A stretch of DNA of 64,000 nt from Gammaproteobacteria bacterium (GCA_963662545.2 CAXXLL010000002.1:640001-704000), one strand, 5' to 3'; counted from the first letter of the stretch, positions 25,607 through 63,190 are shown. The notes: generated from the sequence alone by a model not told the origin. Translations and numbers: made by a program.

Positions 25607-25608
25607 AG

Positions 25609-25751: not shown

Positions 25752-25779
25752 CACATTCGTACAGACCAAGTTCGTCAAT

Positions 25780-30655: not shown

Positions 30656-30657
30656 CT

Positions 30658-31703: not shown

Positions 31704-32012
31704 CGGTGCCGTTCAGCTCCCCCGACACTTTCGCCTTGTATGACCCTTCGACGACCTCCTCTGAACCATTTCTCTCGCAGAGTCGAACATATGAGAATGT
31801 CCCTTTGTATTTTCCTATCTCTTTTCCTACAGGCATGAATCTTGCCCTTTTTTCGTTGATTGTTTCGAAGACGCGGCTGCCGATGCAGCGCGGAATCACG
31901 TTATCACAAAGGAACAACGAGTAGCAGGAATGCGCACAAGTATCACGGACACCAATCCGCTGACCATGTCACGCTCAAAAATCGTTGTCGGGTCTTGCCT
32001 TTTACCCGCGAT

Positions 32013-33980: not shown

Positions 33981-34111
33981 GGCGGTGCAATCTACTCGCT
34001 GGATGGAAGCGCACCCAGAGTATAAGGCGGTTGACGTTCCTTTATGGCATTTGCGTCAGCTTGTGCGCCCGCATCGACGCATGAGCGGTTTCCGCTCACC
34101 GCCCATTTCCT

Positions 34112-34395
34112 GCCTCCTCGCGGCAGTGCAGCATCGCTCCAGATTAAGTCTGCAATACGCTCCATAGCGGTCGTCCGGTAGCGTTCGGGGCGCGACCCTG
34201 ACTCGCGGCTGCAGTCGGCCGAGGCTGTGTCAAAAGTATTTTCGAATTTTGAAAGTGGGAGAAGTTTAGCCCGATTCGTCTACCTTAGGCGGTGCGTTCC
34301 CTTAATCAATCGTGCATAACAACCTAAGTGGGGAAAATTTTCACGGCGGGCTCCATTTTTCGACTTTTGACACAGCCTCGGCCACAACCGGACAT
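34112..34395 (+). repeat. Tri-modular repeat R9 (5'-truncated) containing MITE-A copy 2
   Basis: CTCGCGGCAGTGCAGCA...GTCTGCAATACGCTCCATAGCGGTC; GGCC at 34217 and 34380. Confidence 0.88.
34221..34379. mobile_element. MITE-A copy 2 (159 bp)
   Basis: Same sequence as 21253-21411; GGCC TSD. Confidence 0.9.
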
Positions 34396-36999: not shown

Positions 37000-37037
37000 C
37001 CGACGCTCGACTGCGCCCTTCCTTCGCTGCCGCTGAT

Positions 37038-37303
37038 GGCCGCAATGGGTCCAGGCTGTCCGAAAACTAATTTCGATTTTGGAAAGTGGGGTATGCGTTA
37101 TCCAATTTGATCAATTTGCGCAGTGTGGTCCCTAATTTATCTGCTATGGGGACAACAAGTGGGGAAACTTTTCGTCGCGTAACGATTTTTCGGAGTTTTC
37201 GGACAGCCTGGGTCGTCAGCGGCCTCATCGCCGCGTTGCACCACTACTAAACGTTACGTCTGCAATCCTCTCAATAGCGGTCGTGCGGCAGTGTTCAGCG
37301 GCG
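37038..37303 (+). repeat. Tri-modular repeat R11 (3'-truncated, fused to ISCR tail) containing MITE-B
   Basis: GGTC at 37048 and 37211; module 2 present. Confidence 0.88.
37052..37210. mobile_element. MITE-B copy 2 (159 bp)
   Basis: IRs CAGGCTGTCCGAAAACT; GGTC TSD. Confidence 0.9.
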
Positions 37304-37771
37304 ACTGAAGACCTAACGCCTCTTGAACGCCGAGCAGCGATGAATTGGGCGCAGCGCCTGAAGCGGGTATTCAACATCGACGTCGAGACCTGCAATAGCT
37401 GTGGCGGGCAGGTCAAGATCATCGCGTGCATCGAGGATCCTGTGGTAATCGAGAAGATTCTCACCCATATCGAGCGCAAAGAAACTTCAACAGGCGCCTC
37501 GCGTTTGCCACCGTCTCGGGGGCCGCCGCAGGCCAGTTTGTTCGCCTAATACACGGACAACCGTGCGAGCAACACTGGCAGCTGCGATACCGACGAAGCG
37601 GCAGGGTCGCTGTCGAGCCGAGGGTCGAAGAGCCCAAAAATTAGCACCTAAGTGTGAGATTCTCCGGGCTCGGCCAGCCGACACCGCCTGCAAGCGCGCG
37701 TTGACGGCTGTGCGAGCACCTGCGGACACTCGATGAAGTTGCGGAAAAGGGCGTTTGTTCGTCTTATACGC
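37304..37771 (+). pseudogene. IS91/ISCR 3' remnant with oriIS-like end
   Basis: MNWAQRLKRVFNIDVETCNSCGG..IIACIEDP..RGPP; ends AAAAGGGCGTTTGTTCGTCTTATACGC. Confidence 0.88.
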
Positions 37772-40847: not shown

Positions 40848-41105
40848 GAGCGGGAGGCTCCAGGTCCTACCTGCCTTTGGTGATGAGCGCTGTTCTGTTT
40901 TGCGCCGGCGTGGCTATTGAGCCCTTCGAGACATGAGATGCTACGTAACGCGAATGATTTTAACGCCTTTTATAACTCCCTCTTCCTGTGTGACCGTGGC
41001 TCGGGCATTGCGACATAGGTAAAGACATAGAAACTCCAAGATGCGAAGGCATTGTTGGCGGAGTGGGAGTAAAGAAGCCGCATTCTCCGAGGTCTGCAAA
41101 GGGTC

Positions 41106-42789
41106 CAGGCTGTCCATAAACTCACTTTGCGGAGCACTTGACGGCTCATCCGGGCTGTTTGGTAGCGGCGTCATCACGATGCGCTGATTCTGCGCGTCCA
41201 ACAGCGTTTGAGAAACTCGACGCCAAAGTGGCGAAGGACATTCGCCGCCGCGGTCTATCCAACACCCGGAGGATGTTTCGGGAAAAAGGCGGGTTCCTAT
41301 GACTGTATCGCTTCTATGAGTGGCGCAACCCCGAGTATCGCCATCGCCCGTTTCATGTTGTACGCCAGCACGTGCAAACTCATCTCCGTACCCACGTTCT
41401 TCAGCGTTTTCATTTGGAAGTGTGTCGACCCCATCCAGGATTTCAACGTGCCGAAGGGATGTTCGACGGTCTGTCGTCGAACGCGCATGCGCGCGGGCTC
41501 TTTGTCCAACCTTGCTTCAACCGCTTCGAGCACGGCTTCGTGCTCCCAGCGGCTGACGCGTCGTTCTTTCCCCGTCGTGCACTTGCCTTTGAGCGCACAT
41601 GAACCACACGTCGATGCCCAGTAACGGTAGATTGTTAATCCGTCTTGGTGTGTTTCCGTGCGGCGCGTCAGTCGCTCTCCCGCCGGACATTCGTATTCGT
41701 CATCATCGGGCTTATAAATGAAATCCCGTTTGCCGAAGAGGCCCTTCGCCAGATTGCCCGAGGTCTGGGGTTTCGGCAGATAAGTCGTGACCCCCGCTTC
41801 ATCACACGCCAGGCTCTCCTCGCTCCTGTAGTAACCCCGGTCCGCGACAACCTCCAGGTGCTCAACACCGAGTGCTTCCTTCGCTTGCTTTGCCATGGCG
41901 GCGAGCGCCGCTCGGTCATGACCCACGTTCGTCACCTCGTGCGTCACGATCATATGATGTTTAGCGTCAACCGCCGCCTGTACGTTGTAGCCCACCATCC
42001 CCGTACCGCGCCCGCTGGTCGCCATCGAGCGGGCGTCTGGATCAGTCAGTGAGATCTGTTGGCCCGGTGCCTCAAGCATCCGGGCTTCCAACTTTTTTAG
42101 GCGCGCCATCTCCTCTTTCAGTCGGCTGATTTTATCCGCCAGTCGCTCCGTTTTGTCCTTCGCAACCGCTGCTTCCTGACGGTCAGCACTCGCCATCTGA
42201 CCCAGATACCGCTCAATGCTCTCGTCAATCTGCGCCAACCGACGCTTCAGCTTCGCCTTGGTGAAGTTCCGCTCCCGGTTGTTCACCGCCTTGAACTTGC
42301 TGCCATCAATCGCTACAAATGCCTCCGAGAATAATTCCAGCTTCCGGCACAGCATCACAAACTCCCGGCACACCAGACGAATGGCGACACCGTTGTCCTT
42401 CCTGAAATCCGCGATGGTTCTAAAGTCAGGCGCTAAGCGACCCGTCAGCCACATCAACTCCACATTGCGCTGCGCTTCACGCGCCAGCCGTCGCGATGAC
42501 TGAACTCGATTCAGGTAGCCGTATACGTAAAGTTTTAAAAGGGTTCTCGGATCGAAGCCCGGCCGACCCGCGGCCTTGGCCTCCGACTGGAAACCTAGAC
42601 CGGAAATATCCAGCTCGTCGATGAATACATCAATCACGCGCACCGCACTGTCTTCGCCGATGTAATCATCCAGTCGCTCTGGAAACAGCGTCGCTTGGTA
42701 GCGATCTTCGCCTTCAATGAATCCACTCATCAGACGATTCCTTGCGCGAAAGGTCGATTATAGATTCATGGGAGTTTTCGGACAGCCTG
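41106..42789 (-). mobile_element. IS1182-family element
   Basis: IRs CAGGCTGTCCATAAACTC / GAGTTTTCGGACAGCCTG; GGTC TSD. Confidence 0.92.
41297..42730 (-). CDS. IS1182 transposase
   Basis: SSRRLAREA, AIDGSKF, ADRGY and VEHPFGTLK motifs. Confidence 0.93.
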   Translation of the reverse strand: MSGFIEGEDRYQATLFPERLDDYIGEDSAVRVIDVFIDELDISGLGFQSEAKAAGRPGFDPRTLLKLYVYGYLNRVQSSRRLAREAQRNVELMWLTGRLAPDFRTIADFRKDNGVAIRLVCREFVMLCRKLELFSEAFVAIDGSKFKAVNNRERNFTKAKLKRRLAQIDESIERYLGQMASADRQEAAVAKDKTERLADKISRLKEEMARLKKLEARMLEAPGQQISLTDPDARSMATSGRGTGMVGYNVQAAVDAKHHMIVTHEVTNVGHDRAALAAMAKQAKEALGVEHLEVVADRGYYRSEESLACDEAGVTTYLPKPQTSGNLAKGLFGKRDFIYKPDDDEYECPAGERLTRRTETHQDGLTIYRYWASTCGSCALKGKCTTGKERRVSRWEHEAVLEAVEARLDKEPARMRVRRQTVEHPFGTLKSWMGSTHFQMKTLKNVGTEMSLHVLAYNMKRAMAILGVAPLIEAIQS

Positions 42790-43011
42790 GGTCGTAAGCC
42801 GCCCGCTCGCGGCAGTGCAGCACTGCTAGAGGTTAGGTCTGGGATACCCTCGTAAGCGGCCATTCCCTTCTCATAAAAAGCATCGCAGCGCTTGACTTCG
42901 GCTCGCGGCTAAGAGCGGTCCCGAATATAAACGGTGTTCGTCGAGAATTGCTATGCTTACAGAACTGCCCTCGGGTGAACATCCAATAAGACGATGTCGG
43001 GAGATCGGACC

Positions 43012-44884: not shown

Positions 44885-45028
44885 GTGACGGCGATTAGAT
44901 CGGAGGACGTTATTCAAAGCGTGGCGGACGCGTTGCAATACATCTCGTATTACCATCCGCCCGACTACATCGCCAACCTCGCGCGCGCCTACGAGCTCGA
45001 AGAGTCGCAGGCCGGCGTGGCCGCTTAG
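44885..45028 (+). pseudogene. fumA: N-terminal fragment of class I fumarate hydratase, cut at repeat R13
   Basis: IQSVADALQYISYYHPPDYI...AYELEES, then runs into the repeat. Confidence 0.8.
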
Positions 45029-45149
45029 GGTCGTCGGCGGCCTCCTCGCGGCACTGCAGCACTGTTTTAGATTGCGTCTGCTATTCCCTCCATAGCGGTC
45101 GTCCAATAGCGTTCAGCGGAACGTTTACAGAGCACTTCAGCTTACAGCC
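45019..45149 (+). repeat. Tri-modular repeat R13
   Basis: GGGTC 45028, AGCC 45146. Confidence 0.9.
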
Positions 45150-45362
45150 GAGGCTTTTCTTGCAACGCTCGACATTCCGATCTCGGCACCGAGCCTAGGC
45201 GGACCCGAAACGTTGGTGACGTGCCCTGCCATCACTTCGCACGCGGGACTGTCGATAGCAGCGCGCGAACGCCTAGGTGTCAGCAACGCTTTGATCCGCT
45301 GCTCGACGGGTTTGGAGGACGCTGATGAGCTGATTGCTGATTTCGCCCAAGCCCTCGGTTGA
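45147..45362 (+). pseudogene. C-terminal fragment of a Cys/Met trans-sulfuration PLP enzyme, starting at repeat R13
   Basis: APSLGGPETLV..PAITSHAGLS...LIRCSTGLEDADELIADFAQAL*. Confidence 0.8.
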
Positions 45363-46943: not shown

Positions 46944-47162
46944 TAGGTTTAATAATTCTCCGTTGTCACCTAACCCTCTAATTCACCTTGGCTTAGCCGA
47001 ATCTTCGCTTTCTCGCCATTTCTGCCGCACCGTTCCACCTACCCTTGAAGACCGCTCCGCATTTTTCGATAAACACAGTCATGCCTTTTTTCTGGTCCTC
47101 GGTAGAAAACGCCAGGGCCACCGCTCCAGTCGGAGAAGGAAGCAAGGTAATCTACCGTCGAT

Positions 47163-48993
47163 GTCCGCTGTGGGTCCAGAGTGTGTGAAAACTCTGCATC
47201 AGATAAGATCACTCTTTCGGTCCTGGGGAGTCGTTGATGAGCGGGTTCATTGAAGGCGCGGACCGCCGCCAAACAACGCTGTTTCCCGAGTGTCTGGACG
47301 ATTATGTCGCTGAGGAGAGTGCGGTGCGGGTCATCGATGTGTTCGTCGATGAGTTGGATCTGTCAGGTCTGAGTTTCAGAACCGATGCGCATGAGACGGG
47401 TCGACCGGGGTATCACCCGGCGACGATGCTGAAGCTCTATATCTACGGTTACCTGAACCGGGTTCAATCGAGCCGTCGCCTGGAACGGGAGGCGCAGCGG
47501 AACGTGGAACTGATGTGGCTGACGGGTCGTCTGGCGCCTGATTTCAAGACCATTGCCGATTTCCGCAAAGATAACGGTGACGCCATTCGTCTGGTATGCC
47601 GGGAGTTCGTGATGCTGTGCCGTAAGCTGCAGCTGTTTTCGGAAGCCTTCGTGGCGATAGATGGCAGCAAGTTCAAAGCGGTAAACAACCGTGACCGGAA
47701 CTTCACGAAGGCGAAGCTGAAACGTCGGTTGCAGCAGATTGACGAGAGCGTTGAGCGGTACCTGGCGGAAATTGCAAGTGCCGACCGCCAGGAGCGTGCG
47801 GTGTCAGGTGACAAGTCGCAGCGTTTGAAGGACAAGATCGAGGTACTGAAGGAAGAGATAGGCCGCCTAAAAAAGCTCGAGGTACGGCTCGAGGAGACGC
47901 CGGACCATCAGGTCTCACTGACGGACCCGGACGCGCGCTCGATGGCGACGAGCGGCCGTGGCAGCGGCATGGTGGGGTACAACGTGCAGACGGCGGTCGA
48001 CACGAAGAGTCATCTGATTGTGGCACATGAAGTGACGAACGTAGGTCATGACCGGGCGCAACTGTCGAACATGTCGGAGAAAGCCAAAGAGGCGCTGGAT
48101 AAGAAGGAGTTGACCGTCGTTGCGGATCGCGGGTACTTCAGTGGCGAAGAGATCTTGGCGTGCGCTAAAGCCGGCATCACGACCTATCTGCCGAAACCGC
48201 AGACCTCGGGTAACCAGGCGAAGGGCTTGTTTGGCAAGCGCGACTTCATTTACCAACCCGAAGAGGATGCGTATGAATGCCCGGCCGGTGAGCGACTGAT
48301 TTACCGGTTCACCCGAGTGGAGAAAGGCAAGCAGATCCGGCGCTACTGGAGTTCGGCGTGTCCCCGCTGCCCGATCAAATCTAAATGCACAACGGGTCGA
48401 TACCGGCGCGTCAGCCGTTGGGAACATGAAGCGGTTGTTGAAGCGGTGCAGGCGCGATTGGATCGTGAACCTGACCCTATGCGTGTCCGCCGAGAGACGG
48501 TCGAGCATCCATTTGGCACGATCAAATCCTGGATGGGTTCGACCCACTTCCAGATGCGCACGCTGAAACACGTTGGTACGGAAATGAGTCTGCACGTGCT
48601 CGCTTACAACATGAAACGCGTGATGAATCTACTGGGTGTCGCTACGCTCATCGAAGCGATGACGGCATGAGACCCTCTGTGGCCTCGAAAACTCCCTGAT
48701 CCACGGCTTCACTGCCGGCTTCTGGGGCCGTTCTAAGGAATGTTCCATTAACTAACCGATCGCATTGGACCGCGAGCGCGGCCGTCGTAACCGCGCCGCG
48801 TTGCGTCTGACGAGGAGTTCTCGACGTGATTCCTCTTCATTCCGAGTTTTCACACACTCTGGGTCGGTAGCTGCCTGATCACCGCGGCGCAACGCTGCTC
48901 TAGTTTACGTCTACAATGCGCTCGGAAGCGGTCATCGAGTTGCTTTAAGCGTTAAGTCGAGAGGGTACGACGGCTCTCGGCCAAGTGTGGGCC
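47163..48993 (+). repeat. Tri-modular repeat R14 split by IS1182 (47163-47176 + 48862-48993)
   Basis: GGTC duplicated; GGCC 48979. Confidence 0.88.
47177..48861 (+). mobile_element. IS1182-family element (1685 bp), copy 1
   Basis: IRs CAGAGTGTGTGAAAACTC; GGTC TSD; CDS 47237-48670. Confidence 0.93.
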
Positions 48994-49133
48994 CGAACAG
49001 CACGCACGCCTCGATCATTCATCGGCAAGTTGCTATACCGCAGCGCTGACTTGAAAGCGGCTATTTAATGGGGATAGCAAAAGCTGGCGGATATTGGTAA
49101 ACGTATCCGATAGCGCGACGGGGGAAAGAGGCC

Positions 49134-49877: not shown

Positions 49878-51121
49878 TGGTTTGGCCCCGGTATTTCGGA
49901 CCACCTAATTCGGCACGATAATGTGCTGGGAGGTGTGTCATGGGGAGAAGACAACGCTATAGCGCGGAGTTCAAAAGACAAGCACTTAGGCGAGCTGACG
50001 AGCCCGGGGTGACGGGTGCTCTGGTGTGCGAGGAGCTTGGGATCAGTACGCGACAGCTTCGGCGGTGGCAGGATTTGGTAAGTGAGCACGGGGAGAAGGC
50101 TGCGTTCCCAGGCCACGGCAAGAGCCGCGACGAGGAGATGACGCGACTCAAGCGCGAACTGAGCAAGGTCACAGAGGAGCGTGATTTTTTAAAAGAAGCG
50201 GCGAGGTACTTTGCCAGGGAGTCGAAGTGAGATACGGCTGTATCCACCGGCGGCGGCGCCAGCACTCGGTCAGGATGATGTGCGGGTTGTTGCGTGTCTC
50301 GCGTAGCGGTTACTACGACTGGTGCGGTCGTGGCGAGAGTGCGAGACAGCGCCGGGACCGGCGTCTGTTACCCCTGATCCGAGGCCTGCACCTGGAGAGT
50401 GGCGGTGTCTACGGCGCACGCAAGGTGCAACGCGAACTGGCCGAGCTCGGTGAGCCTTGCGGACGGCACAAAGTGGCCCGCTTGATACACGATGCCGGAC
50501 TCAAAGGTTGTCCGAAGCGCCGATTTCGCCGGCTTGCTGAGCGCCCGCCGAGCTACCCGGTTGCAGCGAACTTGCTCAACCAGGACTTCAAGGCCAGCCG
50601 GGTCAACGCGCGCTGGGCGTCGGATATTACCTACCTCTCGACACGCCAGGGATGGCTGTACCTGGCGGTAGTGATGGACCTCTATTCGCGACGCATTGTG
50701 GGCTGGTCGATGGACCGGCGGACCGGCCGACACCGGGTGGTGGACGCGATGAAGATGGCGCTGGGGCAACGTCAGCCGAGCGCCCCGTTGCTCCATCATT
50801 CCGACCGTGGACCGCAATACACCAGCGATGACTTCCGAGCGCTACTGGCGCGTTACGGGATCGAATGCAGTATGAGTGGTCGTGGTAGTTGTTACGACAA
50901 TGCACCGGTCGAAAGCTTTTTCGCGCTACTCAAGCGCGAGCGCATTCGCCGACGCACTTACGCTTCTCGAGAGGACGCCAAGGCTGATGTGTTCGACTAC
51001 ATCGAGCGTTTCTACAACCGATGTCGGCGTCATGGCTACCTGGACTATTCCAGTCCGGTAGACTTTGAAAGGCAGGCAGTGAAGACTTAATCAACTGGTC
51101 CGAAATTCTGGGGCCGAACCA
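49878..51121 (+). mobile_element. IS3-family element (orfA 49940-50230, orfB 50227-51090) between the outer arms of repeat R15
   Basis: TG...CA IRs; WASDITY, HHSDRGPQY and ESFF motifs; flanks GTCCGCTATG and GTCGGCCATAAGCGGCCAT; no TSD. Confidence 0.92.
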
Positions 51122-51327
51122 GTCGGCCATAAGCGGCCATCCGAGTCGCCTGGCTAACTCAATTTTGATGGCTGGAGCGAGCCATATTCCTGACGACCGC
51201 CCCAAAAAAATACTGCGCGCAGGTATTCGAGCCATGCCCGCTCCGACACCTTATATATATGTGCCCTTAATCGCTGTACTGGTGGGCTGTTCTACGCCCT
51301 ACCAGAAGAAGGGTTTTTCCGGCGGAT

Positions 51328-51835: not shown

Positions 51836-53050
51836 ATGGATTTCTCACTTTCAGCCGATCAAATCGAGCTCCAGAGTCACTGCCGCGAACTCGCGCGCAC
51901 GTTTGCTGAGACGTCCGACCGGCATGATCGCGAAGCATCCGCGCCGGAAGAGAATTACCGTGCGCTACGTGAAGCCGGCCTGTTCGGGATGCTAACGCCC
52001 AAGAACTTGGGCGGGATGGGCGCCGGCCTGCTCGGACACACGATCGCGATGGAAGAACTCGCCCAGGGCTGCGCCGCGACAGCGATGAGCTTCAACATGC
52101 ATAACGTGGCCGCTTATACGCTAACGGTAACCGACGCATTCGGCGACGCCGTACGCGAACGCGCTGCACAACTGTTTGTCGTCGAACGCAAGTTAATGGC
52201 GAATCTCATTTCGGAGGCCGGCACGACCAATCTTTTGTACTCGACGCGCGCAAGTTCGACCCAGGCGCGACGGGTAGATGGCGGTTATCTGTTAAACGGC
52301 CGCAAGGCTTTCGCTTCTATGATCTCCTCGGCCGACATGGCGTTGATTTGCGTGCATCCGGAACATATCGAGAACCTCGAATCGGTGATCATGGTAATCG
52401 TCGATACCGACGCGCCCGGTCTCACGATCGAACCGGTGTGGGATACGCTGGGTATGCGAGCAACCCGCAGTGACAACGTTTTGCTCGAAGATTGCTTCGT
52501 ACCGGCGGAATTTGCCTTCGATCATGTCGTTGTTCCCAGCATCGGCGAATTCCTGGCGACTCATGAATCGATGATCAACCTGCCCTATACCGCCGTTTAC
52601 ATGGGCCTTGGGCTCGCAACGCTGGCCGCGATCAAAGCCGTTGTAAAGGGACGGCGACCCAAGGGTTACACCCAACCGCTGTCTTATCACCCCGATATCC
52701 GGCGGCGCATAGCCATCATCAACGCAGAACTCGAGAGCGCGCGTTGGCTGTTGCGCTACGCGGCCTGGCTCGCCGACAACGAAGGCCAAACGCCGGCCGC
52801 GCAGACGGCGTTGTTCCGCGCGAAATACGTCGTTGGCGAGGCCGTAGCCGCGGCAACGCGATCGGCACTCGAAATGGGCGGCGCGCATGGGTTGTTCAAA
52901 GGCTCGGCGATAGAACGTTTGTTTCGCGACGGCGCCACCGCCACAATGATGCAACCCAGCACCGACGTTTGTCTGGGCCAGATCAGCCTCGATGAATTAG
53001 ACCTCGAGCAAACGCAGGTCCAATCTCCGTTGGCCCGTTCCGACGACTGA
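51836..53050 (+). CDS. Acyl-CoA dehydrogenase family protein
   Basis: MDFSLS, LNGRKAFAS, WDTLGMRATRS and IERLFRD motifs. Confidence 0.9.
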   Translation: MDFSLSADQIELQSHCRELARTFAETSDRHDREASAPEENYRALREAGLFGMLTPKNLGGMGAGLLGHTIAMEELAQGCAATAMSFNMHNVAAYTLTVTDAFGDAVRERAAQLFVVERKLMANLISEAGTTNLLYSTRASSTQARRVDGGYLLNGRKAFASMISSADMALICVHPEHIENLESVIMVIVDTDAPGLTIEPVWDTLGMRATRSDNVLLEDCFVPAEFAFDHVVVPSIGEFLATHESMINLPYTAVYMGLGLATLAAIKAVVKGRRPKGYTQPLSYHPDIRRRIAIINAELESARWLLRYAAWLADNEGQTPAAQTALFRAKYVVGEAVAAATRSALEMGGAHGLFKGSAIERLFRDGATATMMQPSTDVCLGQISLDELDLEQTQVQSPLARSDD

Positions 53051-53313
53051 CGCAGTATGCCGCGTCACCACTCGCGGTTCGGGTGATGATCGCAACCCTA
53101 TAATCGAGTTCTTACCCGGTTATCTCGCCGTACTAATTGGATCCCGCCTTTTCCAACTGCACGGATTCCTGAAGCGTTGTCGTGAATTCGAACGAGGGCG
53201 GGGTCTTCGATGCAGGCGATGACTGTAGAGCACCGCACCTGCGTATGGCTTTTGGATCTATTTTCACAGTCGGGTTGTGCTGGAAGTAAGCGTTCTAAAC
53301 CTGGAACTCCGAG

Positions 53314-53456
53314 GACCACTTTGGGTCGTCAGCGGCCGAATCGCGGCAGCGGATCACCGCCCTAGATTACGTCTGCAGTGCGCTCCATAGCAGTCGTCGA
53401 GTAACGTTCACCGACGCGTTAACCGATGACGACGGCAGTCGGCCAATAACCGATAT
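53314..53456 (+). repeat. Tri-modular repeat R16 (uninterrupted)
   Basis: Modules start at 53314, 53371 and 53431; GGGTC 53323, GGCC 53441. Confidence 0.92.
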
Positions 53457-53769
53457 ATCCCGAATCTGCTACCAGTCAAGCGAATAATTAAATTCGCCCA
53501 ATATCCTGGCACTGAGTGACTAAAATGGTGGCGCTGAGAAAAAATATTACGTGCTAATGCCCGGCTTTAAAATCGGCGGTTGGGGCCCATAATTGTAGTT
53601 GGGTACAAAAAGAAGAGAGGAAATTTAGCAAGTGCCAGTGCCGCCATCAGGATTGAAGTTGGCTTTACTAATTGACCATATAATGGAACCGGATAAAAAC
53701 TGGTTTATCGCGCCAGAAGGTCATTTCTGGTATTGGGTGCCAGCTGACTCTGCACTCTTTCCCCTTTTC

Positions 53770-54942
53770 TTACTCGCGCCGCAGCCGCTCCGTGACTGCA
53801 ATAGGCGTCGGGAAATTCAATACGATTAAGTAGGGAGATACGATAAAAGTGAACAGCGTGCTCGCCTGAATCAAGTACGCTGCGGTCGTACCAATCACTC
53901 CCAGCTCCGCCGCCACTACCGCAATAAGCAGCGAAAACTCACTGAGCTGGCCCAACCTCACGCCCACTTCACGCGCCAGGGCATCCGTTTCCCCAGAACG
54001 GCGGATCAGGAACGCGAAAACGAGCGGCTTGAACAACAAAGTCAGTGCCGCTAGCAGGCACGCGGGAAACACCACCACCGGTAACATGTTCAAATCGAAA
54101 CTCGCGCCCAGCGAAAAGAAAAAAATAACCAGAAAAAAGTCCCTCACTGGTTTGAGGGTCTCGGCGATAAACAACGAAACAGGGTTCGTGGCCATCGCCA
54201 CGCCGGCGATGAAGGCCCCAACCTCGGCAGACAGGCCGAGAAAGGTTGCAAGCTCAGCCATACCAAGACACCAGCCGACCATCAGTAGAAAAATGTACTC
54301 GTGGATTCCGTCAAAGCGGCGCATCAGCGGTACCAAAACGTAGCGCTGTCCGAGAAACGCAACAATGACGAGTACCGGCACGGACACCAGCAATATCAGC
54401 AGGTCAAACGTCGGAATTGCTCCGCGGCCAAAAAAACGAACGAGTAACAAGACCACGACCGCGATGAGGTCTTGCAACAAGAGCACACTGATGATGAGCT
54501 CACCCGTGCGCTGGTGATGCAATACCATGGTTGGCAGCAACTTCAGTCCGATGATGGTGCTCGAGAACATGAGCGCCGCACCCAGCACAAGACACTCAAC
54601 GAGATCGAGACCGAACAGCCAACCTACCACCGCGACGGAAAGGCCGAATACACCGCAACTGACCACCGTTATAAAAGTAGTTTGGCGCAACAGGGCGAAC
54701 AGCTTTTGGGGGTGGAGGTTAAGCCCAAGCAAAAACAGCAGGAAAATTATTCCAATATGGGCGATCTCCGTGATCACGAGCGTATTGGTCACCAGGGCGA
54801 AGCCCCAAGGGCCAAACAGGATCCCGAGCAGAATGTAGCTGACCAGTAACGCCTGACGCGCGTACAGTGCAGCGGTGGCCAGGGCCGCCGCTCCTGTGAA
54901 AATTAGGAAGATGGTGAAGAGAACCGGATCCGGGGTGGTCAT
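53770..54942 (-). CDS. Cation:proton antiporter (CPA2, KefC-like membrane domain)
   Basis: Polytopic; FSSTIIGLK, LLLQDL, GAFIAG and GQLSEFS motifs. Confidence 0.9.
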   Translation of the reverse strand: MTTPDPVLFTIFLIFTGAAALATAALYARQALLVSYILLGILFGPWGFALVTNTLVITEIAHIGIIFLLFLLGLNLHPQKLFALLRQTTFITVVSCGVFGLSVAVVGWLFGLDLVECLVLGAALMFSSTIIGLKLLPTMVLHHQRTGELIISVLLLQDLIAVVVLLLVRFFGRGAIPTFDLLILLVSVPVLVIVAFLGQRYVLVPLMRRFDGIHEYIFLLMVGWCLGMAELATFLGLSAEVGAFIAGVAMATNPVSLFIAETLKPVRDFFLVIFFFSLGASFDLNMLPVVVFPACLLAALTLLFKPLVFAFLIRRSGETDALAREVGVRLGQLSEFSLLIAVVAAELGVIGTTAAYLIQASTLFTFIVSPYLIVLNFPTPIAVTERLRRE

Positions 54943-55137
54943 GACTTCGTCGTGCGCGAACACATATGCGTAACGTCCGTCAAAGTATTCGTGATTTTGG
55001 GAGCTTTGCGGTGCAGTATATTTAACTCGCCCAACGTGACCTACCCGCATTCTTTGGTCCAGTTTTAGAGTAAGTTTACACAGCTTGATTCAGGTTTGGC
55101 ACGTCGTCCTCGGGAAGCGCGGTTTCGGGATCCGGCA

Positions 55138-55236
55138 GCCCGTGAGATGCTGGGAGGGATTTACGAGTGGTTTATAGAAGGCTTTGACACCAAAGACCTG
55201 CGAGAGGCGAAGGTGCTGTTAGAGGAATTGGAATAA
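55138..55236 (+). pseudogene. C-terminal fragment of an adenylate cyclase/AAA-TPR protein
   Basis: AREMLGGIYEWFIEGFDTKDLREAKVLLEELE*. Confidence 0.7.
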
Positions 55237-55255
55237 AGCAACCACGTTTGCCTAT

Positions 55256-55561
55256 GTCTCCTTAGGGTCTAGGCTGTCCGAAAACTAATTTCGATTTTGG
55301 AAAGTGGGGTATGCGTTATCCAATTTGATCAATTTGCGCAGTGTGGTCCCTAATTTATCTGCTATGGGGACAACAAGTGGGGAAACTTTTCGTCGCGTAA
55401 CGATTTTTCGGAGTTTTCGGACAGCCTGGGTCGTCAGCGGCCTGATCGCGGCAGTGCAGCGCTAGAGACGGTTACGTCTGCAATGCGCTCGTAAGCGTTC
55501 GTCCAGCAGCGTTCGGCGGACCGTTAACCAAGGAGTTCGGCTCCCAGCCAACAGCGGTCAT
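55256..55561 (+). repeat. Tri-modular repeat R17 containing MITE-B copy 3
   Basis: GGTC at 55266 and 55429; AGCC 55546. Confidence 0.9.
55270..55428. mobile_element. MITE-B copy 3 (159 bp)
   Basis: Nearly identical to 37052-37210; GGTC TSD. Confidence 0.9.
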
Positions 55562-55626
55562 CGGGAACGGGCAAAAGGCAGGATCTGGCCTCGCAGGCGC
55601 GGATACCAGTCGCGTGAGCCCCTGTA

Positions 55627-57555
55627 TCAGGATTGATCGGTCGTGGCCATCGTCGGAAATCGCACGGTCGCGCCTGGCGTGACCTTGTGCAAATCAAGCC
55701 CCGGGTTGTACTGCCGGAACAGCCATACGGGCACATCGTATTGCCTCAGCGACAGTATCCATATTGACTCGCCCGATCGAATCGTGTGTTCCGTCACACC
55801 AGTTATCACGTTTTTGCGGAAGAAGCTGTCCTGCTGTGTACGGTGATACGCCTCGCGAAGAACCTCGAAGCCTTGCACGTCGACATCGTTGAATTCGAGC
55901 CTGATGCGCTGACCAACCTCCATAGGAGTGCGGAATTTAAGTCCGTTGATGTCACGCAGCCGTTGCGTGCGAATTCCGAGCCAATCCGCATAATGACCAA
56001 GAGTCTCGAGTGGCTGTATTTCGATCGTGTTGTCCTCGGCAACGCTGTAGTCGCTGGGGTCGGACAACAACGAGGTCTGTATCGTCTCCATGAGGCTCGA
56101 CACTAGGTCGCTCACCAGAGCCGTGGGATCAAGCTCCTCGACCTCGGGTTCTTCAGGCCCTGCCTTGGCGGCGCTGGCAACGACAACTGGCTCGGGGGCC
56201 TCAGCCGTCGCTGGCGCGCTCGCGACAGGCGCCGGACCTGCACCGGGCAATCGCAGCCGTTGCCCCCCCCTGATTCGGTGCTGACTGCTAAGTCCGTTCA
56301 GCGCGACGAGCGTCGAGACGCGCGTGCTGTATCTCTCAGCGATTTCCGAGAGAGTGTCGCCACGCGCGACCGTATGAAAGAGATCGGGTAACTGCGCGTT
56401 GTGCCAGCTGTCGGCAGGAACACTGGCAACGAGCTCATCGATCGACCCATTGATCATTCTCCCGGGCATGAGCACATTGAAACCGCGCGGCACGTGTTTG
56501 CTGCCTTGCCAGACTGTCGGCTGCAGGGCCGGATTGTGTTTCTTTATCTGTGTTTGAGTGACGCCGAGGGCCTGTGCAAGGTCGCTCGCCGGCACGAACC
56601 CCGGAAGCTTCGCCTCAGCATAAACAGTCGGCGTGTCACGAACGATGCCGGGAAAATAGTTGTCTGAATTCTGATCGACTTCTTTCGCCGCAAGAAACTC
56701 TGCGTAGAAATTGCGGGATGCAAAACCGAAAGTGCGACCATTGTAGTTGCGTAGTATGTCTACGTAGGCCGTGTCGCCGTGACGACGCATGGCGCGACGG
56801 ACGCCAGACAAGCCATGGTTGTAGGCCGTGATTGCCATCGGCCAGTTGCCGGTAATCGAATAGTTGTAAGCCAGGAGCTTGCCTGCGCCGCGGGTTGCCT
56901 CGAACGGGTCATTTCGGTCGTCGATAACGTGGTTGACGCGCATGTATCGACGCGCCGTACTGCGCGTGAACTGCCAGATGCCGGAGGCGCCGACGTGCGA
57001 TCGTGCGTCGGGATTGTAGGAAGACTCAACGTGCGGCAGCGCCGCAAGTTCGACCGGAACACCCAGCGCGGTGAATTCGGACTCAATGAAATCACGCCAG
57101 CGACCGGAGCGCTTGAGACCCTCCTGGAATCGGTCCGAGAGACCTTGTTGATAACGAATGCGGCCCGCAGCGGCCTTGAGTGTCGCGTTGTCGACATCAG
57201 CCGGCCATAGCGCGAGTATGCGCGCTTCTTCCGCAGTCAGGTTGTCACCTATGCCGTTTGCCAGTGATCGCAGCACCGCGGTGAGGGCATCGCGGCGCTT
57301 ATCAACCCGTCGGTTGCGCTCGCGGCGGCTGAGATTCGTCGGTATATCGATGCGCCCGTAGATGACGCCGAGATGACGATTATCGTGCAGCACTCCCTCG
57401 TCACTGTCATACCGCGCGAATATCGAGACCCAGAAATTGACGTCGGGCTGTAATTCCGGGGGAAAAGGGAAGGTCTCTCCTGCATTGGAAGACGCGCCGG
57501 GAAGCACTAGGAGTAGTAGTAGCCCCGCGAGCCAATATCGACTTTTTCTTGCCAT
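55627..57555 (-). CDS. Lytic transglycosylase (MltD-like SLT) with LysM domains
   Basis: LPHVESSY, GIWQF and AYNHG motifs; LysM HTVARGDTLSEIA. Confidence 0.9.
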   Translation of the reverse strand: MARKSRYWLAGLLLLLVLPGASSNAGETFPFPPELQPDVNFWVSIFARYDSDEGVLHDNRHLGVIYGRIDIPTNLSRRERNRRVDKRRDALTAVLRSLANGIGDNLTAEEARILALWPADVDNATLKAAAGRIRYQQGLSDRFQEGLKRSGRWRDFIESEFTALGVPVELAALPHVESSYNPDARSHVGASGIWQFTRSTARRYMRVNHVIDDRNDPFEATRGAGKLLAYNYSITGNWPMAITAYNHGLSGVRRAMRRHGDTAYVDILRNYNGRTFGFASRNFYAEFLAAKEVDQNSDNYFPGIVRDTPTVYAEAKLPGFVPASDLAQALGVTQTQIKKHNPALQPTVWQGSKHVPRGFNVLMPGRMINGSIDELVASVPADSWHNAQLPDLFHTVARGDTLSEIAERYSTRVSTLVALNGLSSQHRIRGGQRLRLPGAGPAPVASAPATAEAPEPVVVASAAKAGPEEPEVEELDPTALVSDLVSSLMETIQTSLLSDPSDYSVAEDNTIEIQPLETLGHYADWLGIRTQRLRDINGLKFRTPMEVGQRIRLEFNDVDVQGFEVLREAYHRTQQDSFFRKNVITGVTEHTIRSGESIWILSLRQYDVPVWLFRQYNPGLDLHKVTPGATVRFPTMATTDQS

Positions 57556-57798
57556 TTTTTTCAACAGAATATCTGACTCTCGTGGAAAAGTTGTTGTCCT
57601 CCCCAGATTGTCCGCCTCCACTGCACGAAATGCTGCCATGGTATATGCCAGACGACCTAGCAGGCCAAGCCGAATAGCAGTTCGCCAATGCGAATGACAC
57701 CACTCAGGTTAACAAATGCGCTCCAGCCGACACTTGACTGCGTCCTTCCTTCGCTACCGATCCGGTGGGTGAAATACGCCTAGTAATCTGTCCTCGAT

Positions 57799-57942
57799 GA
57801 CCGCTTCGGGTCGTCAGCGGCCTTGTCGCGGCAGCGCATCACTGTTCTAGATTAGGTCTGTAATGCTCTCCATAGCGGTCGGCGAGTCGCCTTAATGGCG
57901 GCTACGGATGAGCGGTTCGGCTCTAAGCCAAGAGGACGACAT
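57799..57942 (+). repeat. Tri-modular repeat R18
   Basis: GGGTC 57808, AGCC 57926. Confidence 0.9.
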
Positions 57943-57951
57943 TCCTTGATA

Positions 57952-59648
57952 GTGTCCGTCCATAAACAGGCATTTTCTTCGATGGGCACGGAGAAATCGA
58001 GGTGTTGAAAGTAGGTTGTTGGAGCGGTAGCGGCGGTTCGGTGGGGGTCGAAGGGCTCTTCGAGCGTAATTGTGAGTACGTTCGCCGGCCGCAGAGCGCT
58101 GCAACCCAAAGTCGCCCGTTCGACGATATCGAGGAGGTCAGTTAGTGCGAGTGAACGTCGCTATTCGAGTTGATAGCGCGCGAGCAGGCTGAGGTTGTAG
58201 GCGACCACAGAAGACCACACGTAGGCTTCGAAGTGCGGCAGGCTCTTCCAGGTGCAACGTGCCAATCCGTATGCACGCTTCAGGCAGGAGATACCGGCCT
58301 CGATGCCGGCGCGGAAGTTGCGCAAGCGTCGATAGACCCACTGACTCTTGACCATGTCGGCGATCGCGAGCCCGCGCTTCTTGTGGAAGGCAACGTCTTC
58401 GATGCCTTCTGCTTTCGCCGCCCGGAGATTGTCGAGGCTCGCATAGCCGCCATCGGCGGCGACCTGTCGTGGCATCGTCCCGTAGTGTGTTCGATGCCGT
58501 TCGAGCATCGGCATGAAGCGCTGACTATCGACCGGATTGCCTCGCTCGATGACCACGTCGAGGATGAGGCCACTGCGCCCCGAAGCCAGATTGATTTTGT
58601 GTCCGTACTGAACGTCGCGCGCACCCTTTATGATGATGTCGGTATGCGGCTCGAACAAGCTCACGCACTTCTCGCTCGCGGGGACCTTCTCACCGCCGAA
58701 CACCCGCCGCTCAGTTTGCGAAATCACCTGCAGAACAAGTGTTTCGTAGTGCGCTACCTGCGCTAGCCAGTCCGGCAGTTCAACGCCGGTGACGCCCGGG
58801 CTCAGCAGCTGCTCACGTACCCTCGCTACCGCTTCCAAGGTTGAACGCGTCGCCCCAATCAAATCGCGATACAGACGTTGGCGTTGCTTCGCACCACGCG
58901 CATACCACAGCGCCCGCGCACGCTTCTTCGCCAATCGAGTGTGGTTCACGAAGCACAACTCCGGCGCGCCAGGCAACTCGCGCGCCTGTGCGAGCAGACG
59001 AACCACAACACGCACGCCATCCCACAGCAGATGACTGTCGCTCGGCGCGTGGATGGCACTGTCCGTTACCGTGCTATCAATCCGTACACGCTGTGCCGGC
59101 TCAATGCGCGTCTCTTTCGCCGTCGCCAGCAGGGCGCGATGAATAGACTCCCACGTCGATACCTGGATCGCCGAGACCACCCGCTGTAAGGCAGACTTCT
59201 TCGGACGTTCATTACCCGGCAACCGGGCGAAGGCCTGAAAGCTCGCCGAGTCCTGCAGGTGAAAGGCCAGCTCCTCGTAACTCAATTGCCGGTGCTGCTT
59301 GAGCACCGCGCAGCGCAGCACCGACTCCGCCGACAGTCCGCGTCGACCGGTGGGCTTCAAACCCCGCCGACACAGATCGTTCATGACCGGCGTGAGGACC
59401 TTGGGGTGAGCATCGAGCCACTCGGACATGCCCTGCAGCTCTCGCCCCAGGTCATGGTCAGCAAACAGCTCGTATATACTCGCTTGGGCCGTGCGTTTCT
59501 GACGCATTCCCCCTCCTGTGGTGTCGATGATTGTGTGGAAAATCAGAGGTTTGAAGTTCCATTAGATCACGACCCACCGGAGGTTTCGATCCCTTAAGCG
59601 ACAAATTTTCCTTTTTATTTCAACCGCATCGCGTTTAGGGATGCACAC
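57952..59648 (-). mobile_element. ISNCY/IS5-like element (transposase 58161-59507)
   Basis: IRs GTGTCCGTCCATAAAC / GTTTAGGGATGCACAC; TTGATA duplicated; RIDSTV, ADGGY and FRAGIEAGIS motifs. Confidence 0.88.
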
Positions 59649-60242: not shown

Positions 60243-60306
60243 TTGCGACCCAGGTCAAAACGCCTTTTATCGAATGAAAAGGATGCTGAGTAACGCAGCG
60301 CAACAA

Positions 60307-62138
60307 GTCCGCTGTGGGTCCAGAGTGTGTGAAAACTCTGCATCAGATAAGATCACTCTTTCGGTCCTGGGGAGTCGTTGATGAGCGGGTTCATTGAAGG
60401 CGCGGACCGCCGCCAAACAACGCTGTTTCCCGAGTGTCTGGACGATTATGTCGCTGAGGAGAGTGCGGTGCGGGTCATCGATGTGTTCGTCGATGAGTTG
60501 GATCTGTCAGGTCTGAGTTTCAGAACCGATGCGCATGAGACGGGTCGACCGGGGTATCACCCGGCGACGATGCTGAAGCTCTATATCTACGGTTACCTGA
60601 ACCGGGTTCAATCGAGCCGTCGCCTGGAACGGGAGGCGCAGCGGAACGTGGAACTGATGTGGCTGACGGGTCGTCTGGCGCCTGATTTCAAGACCATTGC
60701 CGATTTCCGCAAAGATAACGGTGACGCCATTCGTCTGGTATGCCGGGAGTTCGTGATGCTGTGCCGTAAGCTGCAGCTGTTTTCGGAAGCCTTCGTGGCG
60801 ATAGATGGCAGCAAGTTCAAAGCGGTAAACAACCGTGACCGGAACTTCACGAAGGCGAAGCTGAAACGTCGGTTGCAGCAGATTGACGAGAGCGTTGAGC
60901 GGTACCTGGCGGAAATTGCAAGTGCCGACCGCCAGGAGCGTGCGGTGTCAGGTGACAAGTCGCAGCGTTTGAAGGACAAGATCGAGGTACTGAAGGAAGA
61001 GATAGGCCGCCTAAAAAAGCTCGAGGTACGGCTCGAGGAGACGCCGGACCATCAGGTCTCACTGACGGACCCGGACGCGCGCTCGATGGCGACGAGCGGC
61101 CGTGGCAGCGGCATGGTGGGGTACAACGTGCAGACGGCGGTCGACACGAAGAGTCATCTGATTGTGGCACATGAAGTGACGAACGTAGGTCATGACCGGG
61201 CGCAACTGTCGAACATGTCGGAGAAAGCCAAAGAGGCGCTGGATAAGAAGGAGTTGACCGTCGTTGCGGATCGCGGGTACTTCAGTGGCGAAGAGATCTT
61301 GGCGTGCGCTAAAGCCGGCATCACGACCTATCTGCCGAAACCGCAGACCTCGGGTAACCAGGCGAAGGGCTTGTTTGGCAAGCGCGACTTCATTTACCAA
61401 CCCGAAGAGGATGCGTATGAATGCCCGGCCGGTGAGCGACTGATTTACCGGTTCACCCGAGTGGAGAAAGGCAAGCAGATCCGGCGCTACTGGAGTTCGG
61501 CGTGTCCCCGCTGCCCGATCAAATCTAAATGCACAACGGGTCGATACCGGCGCGTCAGCCGTTGGGAACATGAAGCGGTTGTTGAAGCGGTGCAGGCGCG
61601 ATTGGATCGTGAACCTGACCCTATGCGTGTCCGCCGAGAGACGGTCGAGCATCCATTTGGCACGATCAAATCCTGGATGGGTTCGACCCACTTCCAGATG
61701 CGCACGCTGAAACACGTTGGTACGGAAATGAGTCTGCACGTGCTCGCTTACAACATGAAACGCGTGATGAATCTACTGGGTGTCGCTACGCTCATCGAAG
61801 CGATGACGGCATGAGACCCTCTGTGGCCTCGAAAACTCCCTGATCCACGGCTTCACTGCCGGCTTCTGGGGCCGTTCTAAGGAATGTTCCATTAACTAAC
61901 CGATCGCATTGGACCGCGAGCGCGGCCGTCGTAACCGCGCCGCGTTGCGTCTGACGAGGAGTTCTCGACGTGATTCCTCTTCATTCCGAGTTTTCACACA
62001 CTCTGGGTCGATAGCCGCCTCATCGGGGCAGGGCAGCACCACCAAGCGACACGTCTGGATTACTTTCGAAAGCGGCCATCCTGCTTCTGTTGGCATCACC
62101 TCTGAGGGTGACTTCGGCTCTCGGCCAAGTGCCGTCGT
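60307..62138 (+). repeat. Tri-modular repeat R19 split by IS1182 (60307-60320 + 62006-62138)
   Basis: GGTC duplicated; GGCC 62123. Confidence 0.88.
60321..62005 (+). mobile_element. IS1182-family element (1685 bp), copy 2
   Basis: Same IRs and identical protein to 47177-48861; CDS 60381-61814. Confidence 0.93.
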
Positions 62139-62400
62139 TCAATGTGGCGACACATAACAACAGCTTACGGATCAGAAAACGGTCGTTCGTGCAACGTGCC
62201 TCATAATGCCTGGTTGACGCATTCCGGACCTTGTGCGATTTTCCTCCGGAGGTGCTTCCATTTACTCGGCCGGTCGTCAAAATTTGTAGCACTGGCCTTT
62301 GAAGGGGCGTCAAATCGGGAATGTTGGCTGAACGGCGTCGTCACGTTGATCGCCTAAAGCTCGCGCTTGAACTTCACAGTCAAATTCTTATTTGAGTCAC

Positions 62401-62926
62401 ATGAACGAGCAGATCCATTACGCAAGCGGAATCCTGACCCTGCTCATCGAATCGCTCGCCAGTGCGCTACCCGGAATCTTCGCCGGCCTGGTCGTCATCG
62501 TTGCCTTTTTCATCGCCGCCGTCATGAGCCGCAAGCTGTTGCGCCGTTTGTCGGCGCGGGTCGAGGCCGACAAGCGCCCGCTAGTAGAGCTAGCCGGCGA
62601 GACACTGTTCTATGTCGTGATCGCCATCGGCCTGGTCACGGGTCTCGGCACGATGGGAATCGATGTCTCCGCGCTGATCGCCGGCTTGGGCTTGACTGGC
62701 TTCGCGCTCGGTTTCGCCCTGCGCGACGCGGTCTCCAATTTGATCGCCGGCGTGCTAATCCTGCTGTATCAGCCCTTCGGTTACGGTGACAAGATCACGG
62801 TGGGCGGCAATAGCGGCACGGTGATTGGCATTAACCCGCTACACGGTTCTGGAAGCCGATGGCGGGACCGTCGTCCACGTGCCCAACAGCACTATGTTCA
62901 GCAATAGCGTCACGGTCGAGGCGTGA
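62401..62926 (+). pseudogene. Small mechanosensitive channel (MscS family), frameshifted near 62836
   Basis: GFALGFALRDAVSNLIAG, PFGYGD; the alternate frame continues RYTVLE...VHVPNSTMF. Confidence 0.8.
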
Positions 62927-62998
62927 ACCGGAGATAGCGCCGTATAAAACGGTGTGGCGGCCAACCTTTGACTGCGCCCTTCCTTCGATGCCGCTGAT

Positions 62999-63130
62999 GT
63001 CCATTATTGGGTCGTTAGCCGCCGCCTCGCGGCAGTGCAGCACAGCTCTAGATTACGTCTGCAATGCGCTCCATAGCGGTCGTCCAGTAGCGTTCGGTGG
63101 CGTGAACATCACGAGGGGCGGCTCTCGGCC
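62999..63130 (+). repeat. Tri-modular repeat R20
   Basis: GGGTC 63009, GGCC 63127. Confidence 0.92.
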
Positions 63131-63190
63131 GGCGGACAATAAGGTCGGCTGACAAGACATTGCCGTTGCCGTTGCAAAGGAGTTGTGACG

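Follow-up and report, generated by a model that had tools for sequence, protein, structure and literature searches.

Here we describe a repeated non-coding unit in a 64,000-nt stretch of DNA from a Gammaproteobacteria bacterium (GCA_963662545.2, CAXXLL010000002.1:640001-704000), which we call the window and to whose coordinates all positions refer unless a locus from another genome (L plus a number) is named. The unit is ~145 nt long and consists of three dyad-symmetric modules. A search with nhmmer recognized 16 copies of this long form between 15.8 and 63.1 kb, 16/16 of them on the plus strand (E values from 5.6e-37 to 2.9e-46), and no unit in the first 14.9 kb. The repeat listing of the window contains 14 and 16 direct copies, and separate hidden Markov models (HMMs) for the unit's left, middle and right thirds added no further copy in the window. 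By eye we could also read two remnants, a degenerate unit at ~14930-15090 and a piece of module 3 at ~28746 that adjoins the end of an IS3 insertion sequence (IS). The numbering of copies up to R20 in a preliminary description of this DNA was not reproducible, as there are 16 copies plus these remnants. The copy on which that description centred is built as follows:

53312-53456, plus strand: r53321, complete 145-nt unit, nhmmer E 5.1e-42, gapless in the MAFFT alignment.
53312-53339, plus strand: module 1 (M1) of r53321, with 5' arm 53312-53320, GGGTC 53323-53327 and 3' arm 53331-53339; homologous to module 1 of the short form described below.
53369-53397, plus strand: module 2 (M2) of r53321, the best-conserved module, which fits the scan pattern (see below) and has an arm entropy of 0.38-0.44 bits.
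53429-53456, plus strand: module 3 (M3) of r53321, with 5' arm 53429-53437, GGCC core 53441-53444 and 3' arm 53448-53456.

The module starts had earlier been placed at 53314, 53371 and 53431, which is correct to 2 nt, and the spacer between the hexamer arms had been given as 11-12 nt, where we measured 12-13 nt.

The MAFFT alignment of the 16 copies has 151 columns, 21 of them invariant, and a single 1-nt gap, which belongs to the 5'-truncated copy r34098. The order of the modules is fixed and their loops are centred on GGGTC (M1), T.C.CTC (M2) and CGGCC (M3). Measured from GGGTC, the GGCC core of M3 lies at 118 nt in 15/16 window copies, the exception being r34098, in which the 5' end is cut and 1 nt is deleted. 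With five copies from other genomes included (two from L009 and one each from L018, L039 and L051), the same distance holds for 19/20 aligned long-form copies and is 120 nt in the second copy from L009, and the spacing between landmarks is 47 and 69 nt in 19/20. The invariant 118-nt offset reported in the preliminary description is therefore upheld. A degenerate pattern derived from module 2 gave 9 matches in the window against 0.00 expected, and thus recovers only 9 of the 16 copies. A loose regular expression for single palindromes gave 99 and 98 hits versus 75-90 in shuffles, too little above background for counting copies.

This constant length is accompanied by considerable sequence divergence. 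The 15 intact window copies have a mean pairwise identity of 64.5% (range 55-78%) and, over 122 columns, at least 184 substitutions (437 on a star-tree count) and zero indels. We used as controls five further pairs of diverged sequences from the same window (ISCR-like pseudogene fragments, IS3 ends and IS1182 copies), which showed one gap opening per 10-42 mismatches (11/113, 1/42, 3/67, 3/69 and 24/435 gap openings per mismatches). As decaying IS and pseudogene pairs carry gaps while the intact copies are free of indels, the constant length is not the product of neutral decay, which answers the comparison of indels with substitutions that had been asked for at the outset. Entropy is 0.38-1.0 bits in the arms of M1 and M2 and in the 5' arm of M3, and 1.43 bits in the 3' arm of M3. 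The spacers, at 0.81 bits (spacer 1) and 1.33 bits (spacer 2), are below the ~1.8 bits of the flanks, so that the linkers do not diverge freely as had been supposed. We have shown in this way that the window copies are old and under purifying selection, which acts on the arms and part of spacer 1 and foremost on the exact spacing.

A coding origin was rejected, because entropy at the codon positions (0.95/0.88/0.96) has no 3-base periodicity and no frame is open throughout the copies. The preliminary description had attributed the conserved length to a structure that is protein-bound or a folded single-stranded DNA (ssDNA) or RNA and had asked for covariation to be sought on both strands, which we did with RNAalifold. 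For the 16 copies the program proposed 12 pairs (4 in a local helix, 5 in a helix within M2 and 3 joining the two ends), none of which is preserved through double-sided change (covariation term +0.61). For the 20 copies, just a 4-pair helix of near-invariant bases was obtained on each strand, again with no double-sided compensation, and no covariation was found in the module arms. When the ISs were removed in silico, the arms of the window copies were paired in 58% (M1), 70% (M2) and 56% (M3) of the cells. Reshuffled 3' letters match the observed pairing in 738/1000 (M1) and 852/1000 (M2) trials, that is, pairing is at the level given by column composition. Besides, M2 contains a conserved T.T mismatch in 12 of 15 window copies. 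DNA folds of r53321 gave z values of -0.94 and -0.52, a folding energy that is not significant. Rfam 15 had no match at gathering score anywhere in the window and none at E up to 1 across 52900-58100, a segment with three units, and its matches in 10 other loci were one tRNA and one tRNA-Sec only. On the basis of the RNAalifold predictions for both strands, the DNA folds and the Rfam searches, we rejected an attC-like long hairpin and a structured RNA. Of the original proposal, the conserved and non-neutral length is real but the folded ssDNA or RNA is unsupported.

The unit is not restricted to this organism. Scanning one genome per species with the degenerate module-2 pattern, and taking 2 kb of flank per side, we obtained 67 loci, among which the long form occurs only in L009, L018, L039 and L051. 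Most of the other loci come from Hyphomicrobiales (including Bradyrhizobium and Pseudolabrys), from Rhodospirillales and from proteobacterial metagenome-assembled genomes that are unclassified, and these contain a short form of ~120 bp. It consists of three near-perfect palindromes, each 28-29 bp long, whose arms are ATGTCCGCT and AGCGGACAT and whose loops all differ; their order is that of the window unit. In 34 aligned short-form units, 82.7% of the cells are paired versus 33-42% for slid partners; pairing after shuffling is 80.9%, and the observed value was reached in 1 of 500 shuffles. These figures indicate that the short-form family is truly palindromic, with covariation that is at most weak. 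The M1-to-M3 distance of the short form varies between 88 and 94 nt, so that the exact length is a property of the long-form subfamily. An HMM of the short form found 100 distinct places in 61 loci, and 20 of the 22 neighbouring pairs lying within one 4-kb locus are co-oriented, three of those 20 being contiguous palindrome runs. Four Bradyrhizobium species carry a 104-124-bp unit, 87-95% identical, whose surroundings differ in all four and whose edges are sharp at the outer arms. The unit has spread as a sharply bounded entity into unrelated intergenic contexts, and that of the window belongs to this wider palindrome family as a long-spacer subfamily. The plasmid collection contained no match to the long form or to the short form, and a 24-kb near search returned IS matches only. 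Among the papers listed in literature searches on intergenic mosaic elements, IS1182 targets, REP (repetitive extragenic palindrome) orientation, integron-like arrays and the arm sequences, we found no description of the element.

Some similarities go beyond the unit itself. L009:1836-1949 and L018:2878-2989 are also similar over ~110 nt past M3 (a 246-nt alignment, 73.6%), which is not seen in the window. The window segment 14813-15065, which contains the degenerate unit, is 78% identical over 253 nt to L039:113-364, and this shared stretch is located upstream of the array in the window and downstream of the units in L039. Paralogous ABC_sub_bind (PF04392) genes adjoin the unit in the Pseudolabrys-type and Bradyrhizobium loci L010, L025, L052, L066 and L067, and in L010, L025 and L052 the similarity between loci extends from the unit into the 3' end of the ABC_sub_bind gene.

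Ten window copies are interrupted by mobile elements, in agreement with the ISs that had been noted inside copies. These are four IS1182-like ISs and six miniature inverted-repeat transposable elements (MITEs) of 159/160 bp sharing their terminal repeats, and 10/10 are inserted in M1 or M3 loops. The window has 19 matches to the IS1182-type terminal repeats against 0.09 expected, all of them at units. The M1 loop hosts six of the elements, with GGTC on either side, and the M3 loop four, with GGCC on either side, while M2 has received zero of the ten. One pair of MITEs is identical (21253/34221) and another differs by 1 nt (37052/55270), indicating that the IS1182-type family was recently active; the MITE subfamilies, when compared, have 95 identities, 64 substitutions and 0 gaps (~40% different). 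We have shown, then, that the GGTC/GGCC loop centres of M1 and M3 are homing sites of one family of IS1182-type ISs and MITEs, and this homing accounts for the presence of ISs within the copies. A second family, IS3, appears to use the M3 loop. The IS3 copies at 28414-28746 and 50798-51130 are 99.4% identical and, within 28690-28800, the end at 28746 abuts the GGCC of the module-3 remnant. The copies other than r53321 and the elements inserted in them are arranged as follows:

14930-15090, plus strand: degenerate unit at the left array end, read by eye and below HMM thresholds, with a single palindrome at 14997-15019.
15785-15917, plus strand: r15794 up to the M3 core; its M3 3' arm resumes at ~19003-19011.
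15918-18999: IS1182-like IS at the GGCC of r15794 M3 (Pfam, terminal inverted repeats (TIRs), self-BLAST), with an IS256-like (Transposase_mut) element nested inside, whose gene is split into two open reading frames (ORFs), 17573-18766.
21120-21252, plus strand: r21129 up to the M3 core; M3 3' arm at ~21419-21427.
21253-21411: 159-bp MITE in the r21129 M3 loop, GGCC on both sides.
23822-23837, plus strand: left half of r23994 M1 (5' arm and GGGTC), split off by a MITE.
23838-23995 (also counted as 23838-23996): 159-bp MITE in the r23994 M1 loop, GGTC duplicated.
23996-24129, plus strand: r23994 from GGGTC to the M3 3' arm.
25607-25751, plus strand: r25616, complete, followed by a truncated ISCR2-like gene fragment.
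30656-30800, plus strand: r30665, complete, with GGCCC replacing GGGTC and an ISCR-like C-terminal fragment at its left edge.
32011-32143, plus strand: r32020 up to the M3 core; M3 3' arm at ~32311-32319.
32144-32303: 160-bp MITE in the r32020 M3 loop.
34104-34220, plus strand: r34098, M1 lost and 1-nt deletion in spacer 2; the sole window copy with an indel.
34221-34379: 159-bp MITE in the r34098 M3 loop, identical to the MITE at 21253-21411.
37036-37051, plus strand: left half of r37208 M1.
37052-37209 (also counted as 37052-37210): 159-bp MITE in the r37208 M1 loop.
37210-37300, plus strand: r37208, replaced from ~column 98 by the ISCR-like gene fragment 37301-37528.
41090-41105, plus strand: left half of r42787 M1.
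41106-42788: IS1182-like IS in the r42787 M1 loop (Pfam).
42789-42922, plus strand: r42787.
45017-45161, plus strand: r45026, complete.
47161-47176, plus strand: left half of r48859 M1.
47177-48860: IS1182-like IS in the r48859 M1 loop, first 300 nt identical to the copy at 60321.
48861-48994, plus strand: r48859.
55254-55269, plus strand: left half of r55426 M1.
55270-55427: 159-bp MITE in the r55426 M1 loop, 1 mismatch to the MITE at 37052.
55428-55561, plus strand: r55426.
57797-57941, plus strand: r57806, complete.
60305-60320, plus strand: left half of r62003 M1.
60321-62004: IS1182-like IS in the r62003 M1 loop.
62005-62138, plus strand: r62003.
62998-63142, plus strand: r63007, complete, the best match of four other window copies.

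IS1182-family elements have been reported to target hairpins and palindromes (excerpt of PMC4923244), and REPs have been reported as IS targets in other genera (excerpt of PMC3733652). IS1272/TnSha1, an IS1182-family element covered in the former excerpt, resembles the elements found here in its palindromic targets and in repeated independent insertions in one target. It differs in that, according to the same excerpt, the stem is cut bluntly and target sequence is lost, whereas here each insert is flanked on either side by the fixed 4-bp centre of the loop (GGTC or GGCC).

The gaps between window units contain one to three unrelated accessory genes in either direction (Pfam, 50 ORFs), at 72-314 nt from the units. 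ORF maps showed that the orientation of the units is independent of the direction of the neighbouring genes, as the gaps are convergent, tandem or divergent, and r34098 is placed between two gene starts. Short-form units are also intergenic, among ordinary and diverse genes that include the core-type ClpS, MoaE/MoeA and phasin. Among the 109 ORFs flanking units in the loci, three have transposase domains and one an integrase domain. Neighbouring window units are 63% identical versus 65% for distant ones, which led us to reject tandem duplication or gene conversion along the array, and 8/15 window units have their best match in another genome. The same-way orientation requires either a strand- or replication-linked process or the formation of the array by site-specific insertion. 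Anchoring to tRNA genes was also rejected, since the window contains none and a tRNA is found near units in L009 and L010 only (a tRNA-Sec at L009:1106-1197, ~750 nt from the nearest unit, and a tRNA at L010:2196-2269, ~120 nt from a unit). A truncated MscS-type channel gene of 171 aa (62392-62907) ends 91 nt before r63007, its beta-domain match reaching profile position 37/68; most other genes of the array look complete by Pfam coverage.

We propose that the unit is a non-coding composite of the REP type, similar to the bacterial interspersed mosaic elements (BIMEs), that works as a protein-bound site of fixed geometry on duplex DNA and not as a folded RNA, a reading in which our confidence is evenly balanced. 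The arms are conserved and yet not complementary, with uncompensated changes, the spacing is exact and the orientation is independent of the genes, all of which points to recognition of the duplex by a protein. Binding to duplex DNA is also favoured by elimination, given that a folded ssDNA or RNA is unsupported. A sequence-specific protein, probably a dimer on each palindrome, would bind three sites on duplex DNA whose mutual distance matters. The unit would then be a binding platform comparable to BIMEs binding host proteins or to recombination sites with several subsites, and would function neither as a folded RNA nor as a stable ssDNA hairpin.

Several observations weigh against this proposal. 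No partner binding protein was found in our analysis, and the features that define REPs (unpaired tag, short loop, CCA tail and a nearby REP-associated tyrosine transposase, RAYT) are missing. The 159/160-bp IS1182-derived MITEs are equally constant in length, with 0 gaps at ~60% identity, so that constant length alone cannot separate a host function from selection for mobilisation. Conservation has no 10-11-bp periodicity (maximum power 1.31 versus a 95% null value of 2.24). The uniform orientation (15/15 neighbouring pairs in the window and 20/22 in the loci) is not known of BIMEs, and the crowding of 16 copies into 48 kb of IS-rich accessory DNA, where few gaps lack a unit, resembles an array more than scattered REPs. 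Finally, copy number looks low, with no more than 2 exact matches per genome to the module-2 pattern, which under-counts, since of every 3-4 units in L052 and L036, two multi-copy loci, it detects ~1.

The comparison with known palindromic repeats shows both sides of the proposal. BIMEs bind integration host factor (IHF), DNA gyrase or DNA polymerase I, and IS1397 and ISKpn1 insert into their units. The enterobacterial BIMEs, which are clusters of REPs, and the unit described here are alike in being extragenic, in their regularly spaced palindromic units of ~30 bp and partly conserved inter-unit motifs, and in the use of palindrome loops as IS insertion sites; by analogy, a protein-binding role at the DNA level would be plausible for our unit. 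It differs from BIMEs in the lack of a GTAG tag and a RAYT, in always having three units, each with its own loop, in a set order, and in its apparently low copy number, co-orientation across tens of kb and exact length in 19/20 long-form copies. The ratio of T.G to C.A wobbles (4:6 in M1, 20:2 in M2 and 1:8 in M3) and a weak resemblance of the loops hint, weakly, that M2 could be inverted relative to M1 and M3, as happens in BIMEs. By size and position the modules conform to REPs (20-40 bp, extragenic), being 28-29 bp long and intergenic in the window and in the loci, and the regular spacing with conserved inter-unit motifs (spacer 1 versus flanks) is that of BIMEs. No unpaired GTAG or CGTC was found: TGTC/CGTC is located inside a 9-bp stem, the loops have 10-11 nt and there is no consistent CCA tail. 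A RAYT domain (Y1_Tnp) had no match in the 50 window, 109 flanking and 47 further ORFs. Because these features of tagged REPs are lacking, we have filed the unit as a variant of the REP kind and not as a member.

The CGTC-tagged REPs of Alphaproteobacteria have, in the excerpt of Di Nocera et al. 2013 (PMC3733652), an unpaired tag, 8-9-bp stems starting with AT, 4-5-nt loops and a CCA tail, and alphaproteobacterial extragenic palindromic repeats are said there to have no known mobilising enzyme. Our unit shares with those described in the excerpt overlapping hosts (including Bradyrhizobium), the palindromic structure, CGTC/TGTC at the 5' end of the arm and the lack of a dedicated transposase. 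In contrast, TGTC/CGTC is here within the 9-bp stem and the loops are of 10-11 nt. The Bradyrhizobium CGTC-1 variant, with 'loops of different length' in that excerpt, was compared by its description and could be the same element. From the Rhizobium-specific intergenic mosaic elements (RIMEs), our unit is distinguished solely by the absence of matches in the plasmid collection.

An alternative that we regard as unlikely, if far from negligible, is that the unit is a selfish non-autonomous element (REPIN/MITE-like), moved in trans by a transposase that needs three palindromes at fixed distances. Selection for mobilisation acting on master copies would then keep the length constant, and the orientation would stem from a strand-specific, replication-coupled insertion into ssDNA of the IS200/IS605 type. 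According to the excerpt of PMC6006769, the HUH transposases that recognize hairpins target the lagging strand, which would explain the orientation. The sharp boundaries, the unrelated contexts and the 87-95% identity in Bradyrhizobium are in line with this alternative, as are the star-like pattern of identities, with r63007 as the hub, and the equal constant-length signature of proven mobile MITEs in the window. However, no pair of window copies exceeds 78% identity, while the active MITEs and ISs have copies that are 99-100% identical, and old dead copies should have gained indels at the control rate, none being seen in the 15 intact copies. There are no TIRs beyond the palindrome arms and no target duplication in seven short-form copies examined with their flanks; the edges of the unit are its outer palindrome arms and no duplication is visible, which separates it from typical MITEs. 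Moreover, no Y1 (RAYT) transposase was found; the fragments of IS91/ISCR type are truncated pseudogenes, and no unit is attached to their own 3' end.

The units could also be the recombination sites, with several subsites, of a cassette array that is not an integron, the recombinase being encoded outside the window; we find this improbable. Circular cassettes, each composed of a gene and a site, would be inserted successively and would give rise to a co-oriented array of unrelated genes. This fits with the co-orientation of the units in the window and in the loci, with the unrelated accessory genes between them, with neighbours that are not more alike than distant units and often have their best matches in other genomes, and with a geometry kept despite divergent sequence, as in attC sites. 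In addition, L009, L018 and L039 each have a single small gene between two co-oriented units. Integron attC arrays, Vibrio cholerae repeats (VCRs) and clusters of attC sites lacking an integrase (CALINs) are indeed similar in their co-oriented sites of ~120-145 nt between unrelated accessory genes, in keeping geometry above sequence and in being targeted by specialised ISs. The differences are that our unit is not a single long imperfect hairpin, that no R''/R' GTTRRRY boxes were seen by eye at its edges, and that the genes run in both directions, with multi-gene intervals and a variable distance from gene to site.

The genes found argue against such an array as well. In the 50 window ORFs, Pfam revealed no recombinase, including intI/Phage_integrase (the array extends past the right edge of the window), and the only integrase among the 109 flanking ORFs is that of L063. 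Apart from L063, a tblastn search with this protein reached only L007, over 37 residues, and L014, weakly; three sister Bradyrhizobium loci gave no match. Short-form units are found among core genes, unit-gene distances are not constant, the sites are not attC-like and no cassette common to different arrays was found. Somewhat more doubtful still is the specific version in which the units would be res-like sites with three subsites, part of a gene-cassette system unrelated to integrons in Proteobacteria, including alphaproteobacterial lineages. Integrons are reportedly absent from Alphaproteobacteria. The res site of Tn3-type transposons has ~120 bp and three imperfect dyad-symmetric subsites and is sensitive to spacing, and our unit is similar in length, in its three imperfect dyads and in the importance of their spacing. 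It differs in that no resolvase gene is present among the 50 window ORFs and in its near-equal modules, present as many direct repeats versus one site per replicon.

It is very improbable that the unit acts as RNA, be it a small RNA, a terminator or a 3'-end stabiliser of mRNA made of three hairpins. Short-form modules are good palindromes and the units of L052 are placed just past gene 3' ends, and REPs can stabilise mRNA or terminate transcription (excerpts of PMC6006769 and PMC3733652). Against this role are the results presented above, namely the lack of covariation on either strand, the degenerate arms of the window copies with their fixed T.T mismatch, the z values and the Rfam searches, together with an orientation that is constant amid convergent, divergent and tandem genes, r34098 even lying between two gene starts.

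Five truncated fragments of IS91-family transposase genes, similar to ISVsa3/ISCR2, are associated with the array (21482-21712, 25778-26316, 28811-29404, 30447-30687 and 37301-37528), and every one of them is cut off at its junction with a unit. All share a stretch of ~60 nt that encodes the motif WAQRLKRVF. The ORF 25702-26463 (minus strand, Y2_Tnp domain) runs into r25616 and is 66% identical to residues 264-428 of the ISVsa3 (ISCR2-type) transposase, for which we took the reference from a plasmid record; residues of the ISVsa3 type beyond ~445-453 are missing where the unit begins. The fragments at 30447-30687 and 37301-37528 retain the true C-terminus and 3' end of the gene, and no unit lies beyond. 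We therefore rejected the unit as the C-terminus, oriIS or terIS of an IS91/ISCR element, the fragments being truncated at units and intact 3' ends being unit-free. The fragments at 30.4 and 37.4 kb are inverted copies that bracket a 6.6-kb segment with four units, and a 12-residue ISCR-like remnant is found at 53188-53223, ~90 nt upstream of r53321. That the unit derives from decayed coding sequence or from the end of a transposon, such as an IS91/ISCR-like 3' end or oriIS, is hardly credible, for although the Y2_Tnp ORF enters r25616 and the five fragments adjoin units, those with a true C-terminus have no unit downstream and the unit has neither 3-base periodicity nor a shared open frame.

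Extragenic palindromic repeats are common and their function is poorly understood. The family described here offers an unusually clean case of constraint, in which geometry is kept to the base in 19/20 copies from at least five genomes at a mean identity of ~65% in the window. A protein partner, the requirement for spacing and the strand bias are all directly testable. As insertion hot spots, the units mark a highly plastic region of the genome and, if it were true that the arrays arise by site-specific recombination, they would represent a second cassette-capture system independent of integrons.

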